56,364 bases of DNA, from the NCBI GenBank assembly GCA_964400475.1, contig CAYNTH010000004.1:1-56364 (forward strand), read 5' to 3'. The notes beneath the pieces were generated by a model, which saw nothing but the letters and a program-made list of their open reading frames with translations, did no database searches and had not been told where the DNA came from. Made by a program: the position numbers and the translations under genes. Each line of letters starts with the position of its first letter. Position 1 is the first letter of the stretch. This DNA is from an uncultured archaeon (GTDB lineage: Archaea > Aenigmatarchaeota > Aenigmatarchaeia > CG10238-14 > SCSR01). Positions 2 through 19,062 of the stretch are shown here, in pieces.

Positions 2-85
2 CGCCCAGGGCGAGATTTGAACTCGCACGGACGGTTGTCCGCTAGCTTAGCAGGCTAGTGCAATACCGGATTATGCGACCTGGGC
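2..85 (-). tRNA. tRNA-Ser (anticodon GCT)
   Basis: Reverse complement folds as GCCCAGG/CCTGGGC acceptor stem, CTAGC-CT-GCT-AA-GCTAG anticodon arm, long variable arm CGGAC-AACC-GTCCG and a TTCAAAT T-loop. Confidence 0.95.
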
Positions 86-4847: not shown

Positions 4848-4919
4848 GCCCCAGTAGCTCAGTGGTAGAGCGTCTGGCTGTTAACCAGTAGGCCATCGGT
4901 TCGAGTCCGATCTGGGGCG
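4848..4919 (+). tRNA. tRNA-Asn (anticodon GTT)
   Basis: GCCCCAG/CTGGGGC acceptor, GCTC/GAGC D-stem, CT-GTT-AA loop, ATCGG-TTCGAGT-CCGAT T-arm. Confidence 0.96.
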
Positions 4920-5726: not shown

Positions 5727-5800
5727 GGGCCCGTAGCTTAACTTGGATAGAGCCGCTGGCTTCGGACCAGCTAATCAGGGTTCAAATCCCTGCGGGCTCA
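5727..5800 (+). tRNA. tRNA-Arg (anticodon TCG)
   Basis: GGGCCCG/CGGGCTC acceptor, GCTGG-CT-TCG-GA-CCAGC anticodon arm, CAGGG-TTCAAAT-CCCTG T-arm. Confidence 0.95.
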
Positions 5801-14558: not shown

Positions 14559-17500
14559 GTGCCAATGACAAAAATTTCTAAGATAAAAAAAAGGGATGGA
14601 CGCATAGTTGATTTTGACAAGGACAAGATAGCGAAAGCTATTTGGAAAGCTGCTGAATCTGTTGGTGGTGAAGATCGCACCAGATCGAAAGAACTGGCTG
14701 AAATAGTTGCAAAGGAATTGGAAAAACGATATGAAGGAAATGACGACATGCCGACAGTGGAAGAAGTCCAAGATATAGTAGAGAAGACACTTATAGAAGA
14801 GAGACACGCCACGGTGGCAAAATCCTATATATTGTACAGACAGAAAAGAACCGATGTAAGAAAGATAAAATCGCTGTTGGGTGTGGAAGACGAACTGAAG
14901 ATGAGTTTGAATGCCATAAAGGTCATGGCGAGTAGATATTTGTTGAAGGACGAAAACTTGAACATAATAGAAAGTACAGACGACCTGTTCAAGAGGGTCG
15001 CAAAGGCCATAGCGGAACCTGAGAAAAAATACGGTGGGGAGGAAAAGACTAAGGAATACGAGGAAAAATTCTATGATATCATGACTAAGAGGGAATTCAT
15101 GCCGAATAGCCCAACCTTGATGAATGCCGGAACCGAGATAGGACAATTATCCGCTTGTTTTGTTCTACCCGTTGAAGATTCTATAAGGGGCATATTCGAA
15201 GCAGTTAAACAAACTGCCATAATACATAAATCCGGTGGTGGAACGGGGTTCTCATTCGCGAGGCTCAGGCCAAAGGGGGATGTTGTAAAAAGTACAGGAG
15301 GAATAGCTTCTGGGCCATTGTCATTTATGCAGGTATTCAATTCTGCAACTGAGGTCATCAAACAGGGTGGTAAAAGAAGGGGTGCCAACATGGGTATATT
15401 GCGAGTGGATCACCCAGATATATTGGAATTCATAACATCCAAGGAAAAGGAAGGTAAATTGAGTAATTTTAATATTTCCATAACTGCTACGGATGAATTC
15501 ATGCGGGCAGTTGAGACGAATTCGGAATATTCTTTGAAGAATCCGAGAACAACCCAGCCAGCCAAAAAAATGCCTGCAAGGGCTGTATTCAATCTGATGG
15601 TGATGATGGCGTGGAAAAACGGTGAACCCGGCATGATATTTATAGACAGGGTTAACGAGAAAAACCCAACACCGCATGTGGGCGAGATAGAATCCACTAA
15701 TCCATGTGTGGTTGGTGATACGATAATTTCAACAGAGAATGGATTAGAAAGAATAAAAGACATTGTAAAAAAATACCCTGACGGTGGATTTAAGATTTCT
15801 ACGGATAATCGGATACCTATTGTAACTACAAGTAACGGTAATACGCTATTGATGAAACAAAAATCTAAGGGAACTTCACTCAGAACTGTCTCAAATACAT
15901 GGGACGTAGGTAATAGAGATGTATTTAAAATTGTTACTAAATCTGGTTATGAGCTCATGGCTACTCCCGACCACAAGATAATGACAAATAATGGATGGGT
16001 TAAAACCAAAGATTTGATACCGAACAAACACAAGGTATTCATTCAATCGGGAACAGGATGCTTCAATAAAGATAAAAAATTACCATTTGAGCCAAACAAT
16101 ATGATTAAAGGTAGAAATGGGAGAACATACTCTTTCAATTTACCTTCAAAATGGTCTAAAGAACTAGGAATCACCTTAGGATGGTTGATAGGAGATGGTT
16201 GGCTTAGAGATGGTGATAAAAATTGTAGAGTTGGCTTTTCCTTCGGCAAAGAAGACAAAGAAGTTTTCGATTATCTTAAACCAATTGTTAATCATATGTA
16301 TGGAAAAGATATAAAAGAAGTTGAAAGAGAAAACGAAGTTATCCATTTGTCATATCATTCGAAATTTTTTGTAAACTTTTTCAAAAGACTCGGGGTAAAA
16401 GCAGTTAAAGCTGACAAAAAAATTGTACCGGAAGCTCTATTTACAGCTCCAAAAGAAGCCGTTATCGGATTTATACAGGGACTGTTCACAGCTGATGGCA
16501 CTGTTAGAAACAGTCGTAAAAGTTCCAGCGATTGGGTAGCACTTTCGTCCAAAAGTAAAAAATTACTTAAAGATGTACAAATGTTACTCTTAAATTTAGG
16601 TATAAGATCTGTTATATTTGACAGATCGCGACCACGTAGAGATAACTTATTTGAATATGTAAATATTGATGGTGAAAAAAAGACATATGGTTCAGATGGG
16701 ATTTTATATGAAATTGGGATTTTTGGATCAAGTCTTGATAAATTCAAAAAAGAAATAGGGTTCATTTCTAGACATAAAACAAATAGTCTTAATAACATTC
16801 GATATAAGAAAAGAAGATCCATGAAATTTGTTGATGATATCGAATCAGTTGAACATGTGGGTAAAAGGAAAGTTTTTGATTTAACGGAGCCATTGACCCA
16901 TTCGATGATTTGTAACTGTTTAGTAGTACACCAATGTGGGGAGCAGCCTTTATTGCCTTGGGAATCGTGCAATCTGGGTTCTATAAATCTGGAAAAGATG
17001 ATGACCAATGGCGACATCGACTGGGATAAATTGAGAGAAACCGTCAGACTGGCAGTGAGATTCCTCGATAACGTGATAGATGTCAACAAATACCCGATCA
17101 AGGAGATAGAAGAGATGACCAAATCCAACAGGAAAATCGGGTTGGGTGTGATGGGATTCGCGGATTTGCTAATCAAGATGAAAATAAAATATGATTCGCA
17201 AGAAGCAATAAACCTAGCACAAAAGATAATGAAATTTATACAGGATGAATCAAAGAAGATGTCGGAAGAATTGGGGAAGGAGAAGGGATCGTTCCAAAAT
17301 TTCAAAGGAAGCAAATTGGATGGAAAGTACGAACATATGAGGAACGCAACAACGACCACGATAGCACCAACAGGGACAATAAGCGTGATATCCAACTGCT
17401 CATCCGGTATAGAACCGATATTCGCGGTGTCTTATATCAGGGATGTCAGTGACAGTCTTGGACATGAGTTGATCGAGATTAACAATAATTTCGAAACAAT

Positions 17501-17903
17501 GATGATAGAAAGGGAGATGTATACAGAAGAACTGATCAAAAAGATAAGCCAAAGGGGCAGTATACAGAACATAGGGGAAATCCCTGAAGATGTTAGAGAT
17601 ATATTTGTAACAGCGCTGGATATAGAACCAGAATGGCATGTTAGGATACAAGCTGCTTTCCAAAAATACGTGGACAACGCGGTTTCAAAAACAATAAACT
17701 TCCCGATGTCTGCAACACCCCATGATGTTGAAAAGGCATTCCTGCTAGCGTGGAAACTCGGATGCAAAGGAATCACGGTCTATAGATATGGGAGCAGGGA
17801 GAAACAGGTGCTGAACATAAGTAATGGGAACAAAAGTTCATCAGAACCAAAGAAGGCGAAATTGGGGGAAGCTCTAGGCGGTTGTCCAAACTGTCACATA
17901 TAA
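14559..17903 (+). CDS. nrdJ: Class II (AdoCbl-dependent) ribonucleotide reductase with N-terminal ATP cone, interrupted by an intein
   Basis: ATP cone ([13 protein letters not shown]), [23 protein letters not shown]|CGEQPL, CNLGS, TIAPTGT, C-terminal CPNC. About 704 aa after splicing. Start may be GTG 14559 or ATG 14565. Confidence 0.93.
15705..16934 (+). mobile_element. LAGLIDADG homing-endonuclease intein (410 aa) at the RNR active-site Cys
   Basis: Starts [13 protein letters not shown] after ESTNP; block B ATPDHKI; LGWLIGDG and IQGLFTADG motifs; ends LVVHQ before CGEQPL. Confidence 0.93.
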
Positions 17904-17941
17904 ATTTTAATTTTAAATAACTGGATATTGTAAATGATTTT

Positions 17942-18250
17942 ATGAATCCTATATTTTTGATACTGGGTCTGGTAGATACTCTTGCAGCAGGATTGATATT
18001 CTATCCCATACACGAGGCATTGTACCTTTACTTCATGATATATATGATAGCGAAGGGTGGATTTTTCTTCATAAACGGAATCGCGTCAAAAAACATAACA
18101 CCCTGCTTGACACTATCCTTAATAGACATAATAACCGGTTTATTGCTTGGTGCCATATCTATGGGATACAGTTATGATTTTTTCACAATATTGGGTATGA
18201 TATCGGTTGGTAAGGGACTGTTCTGTGTTATACTACCGTTTTTGTATTGA
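17942..18250 (+). CDS. Small four-TM membrane protein, function unknown
   Basis: 102 aa, hydrophobic, with an internal repeat (D-x-x-x-GL ... KG-x-F twice); lies between nrdJ and the adenosyltransferase. Confidence 0.7.
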   Translation: MNPIFLILGLVDTLAAGLIFYPIHEALYLYFMIYMIAKGGFFFINGIASKNITPCLTLSLIDIITGLLLGAISMGYSYDFFTILGMISVGKGLFCVILPFLY

Positions 18251-18259
18251 GGTTTTCTT

Positions 18260-18823
18260 ATGAAAGACAAGATGTCAGCAAAGACCAAGAAGGAGATTGG
18301 GGAAAAGAGACGTGGAATGATATATCTATATACAGGAACAGGTGCCGGCAAGACCACCAATGCACTGGGAATCGCTATGAGATGCGTGGGACATGAAAAA
18401 AAGGTGGTCATTATACAATTCCTGAAATGGTTGAAAGAGACGGGCGAATATAAAATCAGGGATAAGTTAAAACCATATTATGAGATATACCAATTCGGTA
18501 GGAAGGGATGGATAGGATTGGACAATCTCAATGAAGAGGATGAAAAATTGGCCAAAGAGGGATTCGAATTCGCCAAAAAAATCGTGGAAGAAAAACACCC
18601 GCATGTACTGGTGTTGGACGAACTTACAATAGCCATGAGCAGGGGGTTATTGGATAAAGATGAAGTATCGGAATTTCTATTGAACATGCCACCAAGCACG
18701 GACGTTGTTATAACAGGGAGATACGCTCCGGGCGAGTTGTGGGATATAGCGGATTTTGTCAATATAATTGTAGAAAATAAATATCCTAAGGAAATGGTGT
18801 CCAAGAAGGGGATACAATATTAG
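18260..18823 (+). CDS. Cob(I)yrinic acid a,c-diamide / cobalamin adenosyltransferase (CobA/BtuR family)
   Basis: YLYTGTGAGKTTNALGIAMR, IIQFLK, VLVLDEL, VVITGRYAP. Confidence 0.9.
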   Translation: MKDKMSAKTKKEIGEKRRGMIYLYTGTGAGKTTNALGIAMRCVGHEKKVVIIQFLKWLKETGEYKIRDKLKPYYEIYQFGRKGWIGLDNLNEEDEKLAKEGFEFAKKIVEEKHPHVLVLDELTIAMSRGLLDKDEVSEFLLNMPPSTDVVITGRYAPGELWDIADFVNIIVENKYPKEMVSKKGIQY

Positions 18824-18870
18824 AATTATTTAAAAATGATAAAATCAAGATAGATAATAAGTGAATTGTT

Positions 18871-19062
18871 ATGGCAAATGTGAAAATAGATCAGGAAAAA
18901 TGTATTGGATGCGGTCTTTGTGCCGGAATGTGCGAAGATGTATTCGAATTGAAGCTAGATGGCAAAGCATATGTAAAAAACGGATCGAATTGCGGAGAAA
19001 ACTGTGATTGTAAATCTGTTTCAGAGAGTTGTCCAGTAGATGCCATAGAATACAGCGAATGA
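18871..19062 (+). CDS. Ferredoxin
   Basis: CIGCGLC...SCPVDAI motif, 63 aa. Confidence 0.92.
   Translation: MANVKIDQEKCIGCGLCAGMCEDVFELKLDGKAYVKNGSNCGENCDCKSVSESCPVDAIEYSE

Follow-up and report, generated by a model that had tools for sequence, protein, structure and literature searches.

We analyzed a 56,364-nt stretch of DNA (the window) that is contig 4 of a 649-kb metagenome-assembled genome of Aenigmatarchaeota (15 contigs, 88% complete, GC content of about 40%), whose nearest relatives carry the label Candidatus Aenigmatarchaeota. An earlier note, made from the sequence alone, had described four co-oriented genes with gaps of 38, 9 and 47 nt as a candidate cobamide salvage unit, and the coordinates of the open reading frames (ORFs) confirmed this orientation and spacing. 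Using Pfam and NCBIfam profiles, the products were identified, in order, as a ribonucleotide reductase (RNR) dependent on adenosylcobalamin (AdoCbl), NrdJ; a 102-aa four-helix membrane protein without any match, hereafter TM4; CobA/BtuR; and a 63-aa 4Fe-4S ferredoxin. Genomes, families, genera and loci are labelled G, f, g and L, the genome of the window being G000 and its family f1 (69 genomes). The features of the cluster are as follows:

14559..17903, forward strand: nrdJ, class II (adenosylcobalamin-dependent) ribonucleotide reductase with an N-terminal ATP-cone (PF02867, PF03477, PF00317, TIGR02504)
15705..16934, forward strand: LAGLIDADG intein of 410 aa, NrdJ residues 383-792 (PF14528, PF14890; alignment to the intein-less orthologue at L004)
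17911..17919, forward strand: TATA-box-like element TTTTAAATA, about 27 nt upstream of the TM4 ATG (read from the sequence)
17942..18250, forward strand: TM4, four-helix membrane protein of 102 aa with two repeats of a hairpin of two transmembrane (TM) helices (homologues, alignment, AlphaFold2, hhalign)
18249..18253, forward strand: Shine-Dalgarno-like GAGGT, 7 nt upstream of the cobA start codon (ATG) and overlapping the stop of TM4 (read from the sequence)
18260..18823, forward strand: cobA/btuR, ATP:co(I)rrinoid adenosyltransferase (PF02572, E 4.5e-46), single copy in G000
18871..19062, forward strand: ferredoxin of 63 aa with a single 4Fe-4S cluster and a CxxCxxC...CP motif (PF13370, PF13459, sequence)

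NrdJ is a predicted AdoCbl-dependent class II enzyme. Its score against TIGR02504 (NrdJ_Z) was 739.1 bits for an equivalog cut-off of 399.95, which places it in class II, and its score against PF02867 was 479.7 bits (E 1.4e-143); ATP-cone, RNR all-alpha and barrel domains were all recognized. Neither NrdD nor a second RNR barrel was found in the 88%-complete genome, where NrdJ is thus the sole RNR. The intein splits the protein within its catalytic NPC/GE motif. The alignment to the L004 orthologue is interrupted at Cys383 and Cys793, and the exteins rejoin as NP-C-GEQ, so that without the intein the catalytic N-P-C-G-E motif is intact and the protein is 77-78% identical to the intein-less orthologue. 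The intein ends in ...VVHQ followed by Cys, with Gln as last residue in place of the usual Asn, and is missing from close relatives such as L004.

NrdJ requires AdoCbl, and CobA makes it. The CobA of the window matched PF02572 over its full length (157.6 bits, cut-off 25.7; profile positions 2-172 of 172) and scored under the NCBIfam equivalog cut-offs (TIGR00708, 121.6 vs 167.75; NF004637, 137.4 vs 185); by these profile scores it is a divergent archaeal member of the family, short of equivalog level. It is also the only cobamide-pathway gene found in G000. The ferredoxin gene directly follows cobA at L001 and L004-L012, an arrangement limited to close relatives of the window, and its position together with the known chemistry of CobA makes the ferredoxin a candidate Co(II)-to-Co(I) reductant.

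The pairing of nrdJ and cobA was surveyed in 371 Aenigmatarchaeota genomes by six-frame first-look scans, whose counts ignore kinship and which miss some genes (G107 scored negative though an RNR fragment adjoins its TM4 gene). CobA was detected in 109 and NrdJ in 226 of the 371 genomes, and 103 of the 109 CobA-positive genomes also had NrdJ (odds ratio 19). We observed cobA right after nrdJ, with spacers of about 90-260 nt, for example in G036, G037, G067, G033, G021, G206 and G208, and further direct neighbours in G166, G124, G125, G130, G245, G326 and G344-G351. The spacing is too tight to accommodate TM4 in G036, G037, G067, G206, G208 and G344-G351, and TM4 lies on a separate contig from nrdJ-cobA in G036, G037, G124 and G245. 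The nrdJ-cobA coupling is real and general across the phylum, and the nrdJ-cobA(-ferredoxin) unit represents a design of the phylum as a whole. Taken together, the sole RNR, the co-occurrence and the adjacency support well the enzymatic part of the earlier proposal, in which CobA supplies the AdoCbl that NrdJ needs and a ferredoxin is a plausible electron donor.

The origin of the corrinoid was addressed by genome-wide profile scans. In the 88%-complete G000, we observed no match to FecCD (PF01032), Peripla_BP_2 (PF01497), ECF_trnsprt (PF12822) or CbiQ/EcfT (PF02361), and no DUF4430, CobS or CbiB. The earlier statement that the window holds neither corrin synthesis genes nor BtuCDF thus extends to the whole available genome, and a standard BtuCDF or ECF transporter for B12, which the earlier note had proposed to look for, was not found there. 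Two clear B12-binding radical SAM genes and a possible, weakly matching third lie on other contigs (L096-L098; C1:44416-45828, C5:43188-44594 and C1:18033-19643). The cell therefore has B12 clients besides NrdJ, which would use methyl- or cob(I)alamin and not AdoCbl. Overall, the organism appears B12-dependent for every deoxynucleotide, yet it is without a recognizable importer. Since no genes for cobamide synthesis or remodelling were found, the cell must rely on an external source or a host for a complete corrinoid; once this has been taken up, its cobalt would be reduced to Co(I), probably with the neighbouring 4Fe-4S ferredoxin as donor, the Co(I) corrinoid would be adenosylated by CobA, and the resulting AdoCbl would serve NrdJ. 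We lean towards reading the cluster as an AdoCbl-supply operon for the sole RNR that carries a probably unrelated membrane passenger, TM4.

We predict that TM4 and cobA share a transcript, which may begin at an internal promoter. Because GAGGT overlaps the stop of TM4 and lies 7 nt upstream of the cobA start codon, the two genes are probably transcribed together with coupled translation, and TTTTAAATA, by its resemblance to an archaeal TATA box, is a possible internal promoter for TM4. The protein itself had no Pfam or NCBIfam match, and no Pfam profile of B12 transporters matched it even at E up to 10. AlphaFold2 predicted a four-helix bundle (helices 3-20, 25-48, 54-73 and 80-101; pLDDT 90, pTM 0.78) with loops of 4-6 residues outside the membrane. 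The earlier note had called TM4 internally duplicated, and hhalign agrees: when a 109-sequence alignment was split and its halves compared, they proved homologous (probability 98.3%, E 2e-14). Each half contains a mid-helix Asp and a Lys-Gly (D12/K38 and D62/K91); D62 and K91 are invariant in the alignment, D12 and K38 nearly so.

A word-based search recovered three homologues of TM4 at 54-57% identity, which share the gene order RNR, small gene, CobA, ferredoxin and NAD kinase. Among 1.84 billion representatives searched exhaustively with HMMER, only 20 TM4 clusters emerged, all of about 100 aa; a lone long match, P0019, was rejected as low-complexity noise. Fused or longer forms, which might have given Rosetta-stone evidence, were looked for and not found, which is weak evidence against a role in corrinoid uptake. 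The TM4 profile matched in 187 of the 371 Aenigmatarchaeota genomes, and the family is restricted to this phylum. The idea that the 102-aa ORF is a chance frame in an AT-rich spacer and no gene at all would fit its shortness, the missing Pfam match and the GC content of the genome. It is refuted by conservation, as homologues with conserved D/K positions occur in 187 genomes, the AlphaFold2 model is confident, and placement and orientation are kept, and we give it practically no credence.

The family also includes shorter and paired forms. Single-hairpin paralogues of 46-51 aa, with the D...KG pattern kept, lie convergent with the gene of ribosomal protein S27e at L120-L124 (about 1492-1644 in each; genomes G122, G120, G083, G115 and G116); no paralogue of this half size was found when G000 was searched. 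Tandem pairs of the 100-aa gene were observed at L042, L043, L055 and L035 (genus g15) and at L083-L085 and L093 (f38), which suggests hetero-oligomers. Since single-hairpin, double-hairpin and tandem forms all occur, TM4 presumably works as an oligomer, and its buried Asp-Lys pairs suggest a role in ion or proton handling or in membrane homeostasis.

Regarding its kinship, the DUF308 profile (PF03729) was matched by 35 of the 109 TM4 members at E up to 1 (best E 1.7e-6), with scores mostly under the 25-bit cut-off (12-24 bits for members checked singly) and no match for the TM4 of the window. A protein-language-model search also pointed to DUF308/HdeD, and the alignment of the halves, the four-helix model and the single-hairpin paralogues all display the repeated two-TM hairpin architecture of that family. 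From these similarities, TM4 looks like a divergent DUF308-type protein in a so far undescribed family. The kinship does not point to a mechanism. Structure comparisons were less specific: the best Foldseek hit of the model against the PDB had an E of 0.7, a wide search with VIA-align recovered nothing beyond generic bundles of four helices, such as TRP S1-S4 domains and designed proteins (the highest Z, 10.5, belonging to one of the latter), and no PDB sequence matched the profile at E up to 10. We also considered whether TM4 could be CbiN, an SMR/ArnEF-type pair, an ATP-synthase c-subunit or a SemiSWEET, and rejected each, as profile matches were missing and the repeat architecture was wrong.

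An alternative explanation is that oligomers of the TM4 hairpins act as a channel or transporter and let through a small ion, a metal or protons, with the buried carboxylates as a binding ring, which would tie TM4 to metal or redox homeostasis around RNR and not to cobamide. The two invariant mid-membrane Asp of each protomer and the single-hairpin, double-hairpin and tandem forms, as expected of ring-forming subunits, are consistent with it. So are a VIT1 iron/manganese transporter near TM4 in 10 loci and a DUF2284 gene (predicted metal-binding) directly after TM4 in the eight of eight loci where it is present (L057, L022, L029, L076, L084, L085, L088 and L093; f38 and f8), although for DUF2284 itself no literature tie to B12 or to any function was found. 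The fold search returned four-helix channel domains as well, at generic scores only. However, no sequence or fold match to a known ion transporter was observed, the Asp residues are paired with Lys and may be merely structural, and VIT1 belongs to the same f1 synteny block and is hence not independent. We consider such a channel quite unlikely.

The reading that the earlier note had put forward, TM4 as an undescribed component of cobamide uptake or binding, requires a closer weighing. In a softened form, TM4 would be a small oligomeric corrinoid-acquisition component that, as an accessory or docking subunit, hands imported cobamide to CobA and NrdJ in f1 and partners with ECF-S-like and DUF4430 proteins in f3. 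The co-occurrence of TM4 with nrdJ and btuR, which the note had proposed to examine, did not bear it out. Among the 371 genomes, 114 had both TM4 and NrdJ, 73 TM4 only, 112 NrdJ only and 72 neither (odds ratio 1.00), and the odds ratios were 0.66 against CobA and 1.07 against B12-binding domains; TM4 thus occurs independently of B12 enzymes, a result that the earlier note had listed as refuting its proposal. Fifteen TM4-positive genomes had no B12 marker in the scans. Ten of them were re-examined, none with a match to the RNR barrel, and nine of the ten have the B12-independent class III enzyme NrdD. These nine genomes, five of which are at least 90% complete, had no match to NrdJ, CobA or B12-binding domains. 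In genus g23, TM4 is present in nine of nine genomes in one and the same context, with NrdJ and CobA in three of the nine only. Conversely, both TM4 and DUF4430 are missing from 116 of the 324 genomes that use B12. The size of the protein also argues against a corrinoid role, since a monomer of 102 aa with such short loops has no obvious site for a 1.3-kDa corrinoid, and no similarity to BtuC, BtuM, CbrT or CbiN was observed.

The neighbourhoods of TM4 were compared at 91 loci. The order of the window, RNR>TM4>CobA>ferredoxin>NAD kinase<, was found only in genera g1, g5, g18 and g22; in g4, cobA is divergent from TM4, and in g2 it is 2-3 kb off, so that the TM4-cobA linkage is limited to a few genera of one family. 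In most other f1 genera, in f7 and in one f25 genome, TM4 is convergent with a long NrdJ carrying a TSCPD domain. At two loci, L015 (G138) and L020 (G139), TM4 lies between two NrdJ genes, a convergent one of the long TSCPD form and a divergent one for a shorter protein of about 700 aa. Elsewhere the contexts are of a housekeeping kind, as in most lineages: LeuRS>TM4>primase or DUF2284 in f38, RadA>TM4...topoisomerase in f8, f12-14 and f21, and S2<PAC2<TM4>eIF2a< in genus g23. The conservation of neighbourhood expected by the earlier note is therefore partial, with B12-related neighbours in f1, f7 and one f25 genome (RNR or CobA) and in f3 (DUF4430 and ECF-S-like), and others in f38, f8, f12-14, f21, f31 and g23. 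Since the genes for GDH, NAD kinase, TM4, RNR and S2 cluster repeatedly across f1, f6, f7 and f25, the place of TM4 beside RNR appears to be part of an inherited block.

These patterns can be joined in a scenario in which an ancestral housekeeping block of S2, RNR, TM4, NAD kinase and GDH already had TM4 as a neighbour of RNR, and in which TM4 would then, in a few genera, have been enclosed into the nrdJ-cobA unit, where it is now probably co-transcribed with cobA. TM4 would most likely not be a dedicated cobamide importer but a member of a phylum-wide family of DUF308/HdeD-like hairpin-repeat proteins. A general membrane role, with a gene order first inherited and then captured, is in our view the better-founded account, and we hold it with moderate confidence.

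Several observations weigh against this account, and most of them favour the corrinoid role. In f1, 15 of 17 genus groups have RNR at most three genes from TM4, even though flips and insertions have occurred, the next-best neighbours being CobA (6 of 17) and S2 (5 of 17); this persistence through rearrangements hints at selection for the pairing. RNR is thereby the top neighbour in f1, and it is a neighbour in f7 and f25 as well. Within the window, the operon position, the 9-nt gap and the Shine-Dalgarno-like element across the TM4 stop point the same way, as does the gene order kept in four genera. G000 has no recognizable corrinoid importer, so that the job is vacant. Some B12 marker was slightly commoner with TM4 (172 of 187 TM4-positive vs 152 of 184 TM4-negative genomes, kinship ignored). 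The co-occurrence test is itself low-powered, as 87% of the genomes carry some B12 marker, and it discriminates poorly, since DUF4430 too is unassociated with NrdJ (odds ratio 0.9). Lastly, the ion or membrane role that we propose is a suggestion drawn indirectly, from the buried Asp-Lys pairs.

A second link to cobamide genes weighs on the same side. A 118-aa TM4 subtype, in f3 genomes and several metagenome contigs, adjoins DUF4430 and ECF-S-like genes in two arrangements:

L048, 2249-5321 (G066): 118-aa subtype beside DUF4430/ECF-S-like genes
L100, 134-1520: 118-aa subtype beside DUF4430/ECF-S-like genes
L050, 3775-5303 (G046): 118-aa subtype beside DUF4430/ECF-S-like genes

This subtype has an N-terminal M-x-YYLT-x-EERWN extension, lacks K38 and is followed in several contigs by a 205-aa zinc-ribbon protein; the f3 ECF-S-like protein is 238 aa long and scores 31.4 bits against PF12822 (cut-off 30.7). 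TM4 is present in six of six DUF4430-positive f3 genomes. In f39 and f31, the ECF-S-like/DUF4430 pair lies within nrdJ-(NUDIX)-cobA-dCTP deaminase clusters. Eight such clusters (L106-L113; G343, G350, G347, G245, G348, G351, G247 and G335) contain nrdJ, (NUDIX), cobA and dCTP deaminase/dUTPase together with ECF-S-like proteins of 250 aa, DUF4430 proteins of 135-150 aa and thioredoxin-like proteins of about 400 aa, and by their content they look like combined units for deoxynucleoside triphosphates and corrinoid uptake. TM4 is thus tied to cobamide genes by two routes, RNR/CobA and DUF4430/ECF-S-like. By our estimate, chance would produce about two such links among some ten distinct contexts in only a few per cent of cases. 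The neighbourhood signals of RNR and of DUF4430/ECF-S lift the corrinoid reading well above its prior.

The module from the sister families also offers a competitor for the uptake function. Transcobalamins contain the DUF4430 domain in their C-terminal region (PMC4350170), and bacterial DUF4430 accompanies ECF-type tetrapyrrole/cobalamin systems, such as lsa1836-1840 of L. sakei (bioRxiv 10.1101/864751). The ECF-S-like/DUF4430 module beside nrdJ-cobA is a better candidate for corrinoid uptake than TM4. Small genes resembling TM4 were looked for within the nrdJ-cobA-ECF-S-DUF4430 clusters of f39 and f31 and not found, and the module is absent from all 69 f1 genomes, that of the window included. 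The corrinoid reading is pulled back because of the B12-free carriers, the housekeeping contexts, the tiny size, the S27e-side paralogues, the DUF308 kinship and the 116 of 324 B12-using genomes noted above, and we regard such a role of TM4 as unlikely. What still speaks for the membrane-protein part of the earlier proposal is the RNR neighbourhood in f1 and the DUF4430/ECF-S link in f3; the independent occurrence of TM4, with nine NrdD genomes that keep it, speaks against that part, as does the narrow spread of the cobA linkage. It is correspondingly improbable that the TM4 family is a new corrinoid-acquisition component of DPANN archaea, acting as a solo oligomer or with ECF-S-like/DUF4430 partners, with the B12-free carriers keeping it for a second substrate such as another tetrapyrrole. 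If true, this would make the TM4 proteins a novel kind of vitamin transporter component, and one of very small size.

As for regulation and the remaining features of the window, an Rfam scan found no cobalamin riboswitch in the window and matched only RNase P RNA and tRNAs:

25927-26253: archaeal RNase P RNA (91 bits, Rfam)
2-85, reverse strand: tRNA gene (Rfam)
4848-4919: tRNA gene (Rfam)
5727-5800: tRNA gene (Rfam)

Overall, these results bear on the question of how genome-reduced DPANN archaea acquire B12; they narrow the search for the importer and supply concrete genes to express.

Compared with known systems, TM4 resembles the DUF308/HdeD acid-resistance family (PF03729), with which it shares the repeated two-TM hairpin unit; it differs by having two repeats and, for the TM4 of the window, no profile match. 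ECF-CbrT is a known B12 importer (PMC5997447). To BtuCDF, ECF-CbrT and BtuM, TM4 is similar in its proposed role and in its position by B12 genes, whereas S-components have 6 helices and BtuC 10, against 4 helices and 102 aa in TM4, for which the sequence and fold searches gave no match to BtuC, BtuM or CbrT; EcfT/ABC partners were not found in G000. CbiN, the small accessory membrane subunit of the CbiMNQO cobalt importers, resembles TM4 in its size of about 100 aa and its cobalt/cobamide context, and by this likeness TM4 could act only as an accessory; in contrast to CbiN, TM4 has no PF02553 match, has four helices and is without an extracytoplasmic loop. The L. sakei type of DUF4430 and ECF-S operon has its counterpart in the pairs that other Aenigmatarchaeota carry beside nrdJ-cobA or the 118-aa TM4, although TM4 adjoins the module in f3 and is not homologous to it. 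In Salmonella, CobA pairs with the reductant FldA, PduO is encoded in pdu and EutT in eut, and MMAB is found beside methylmalonyl-CoA mutase. Here too, a CobA-family gene lies beside an AdoCbl enzyme and a low-potential carrier, but the enzyme served is NrdJ, and the presumed carrier is a small ferredoxin (63 aa, 4Fe-4S) instead of a flavodoxin. The enzymatic unit is thus a new instance of a familiar logic, that of a B12 enzyme encoded beside its own adenosyltransferase.

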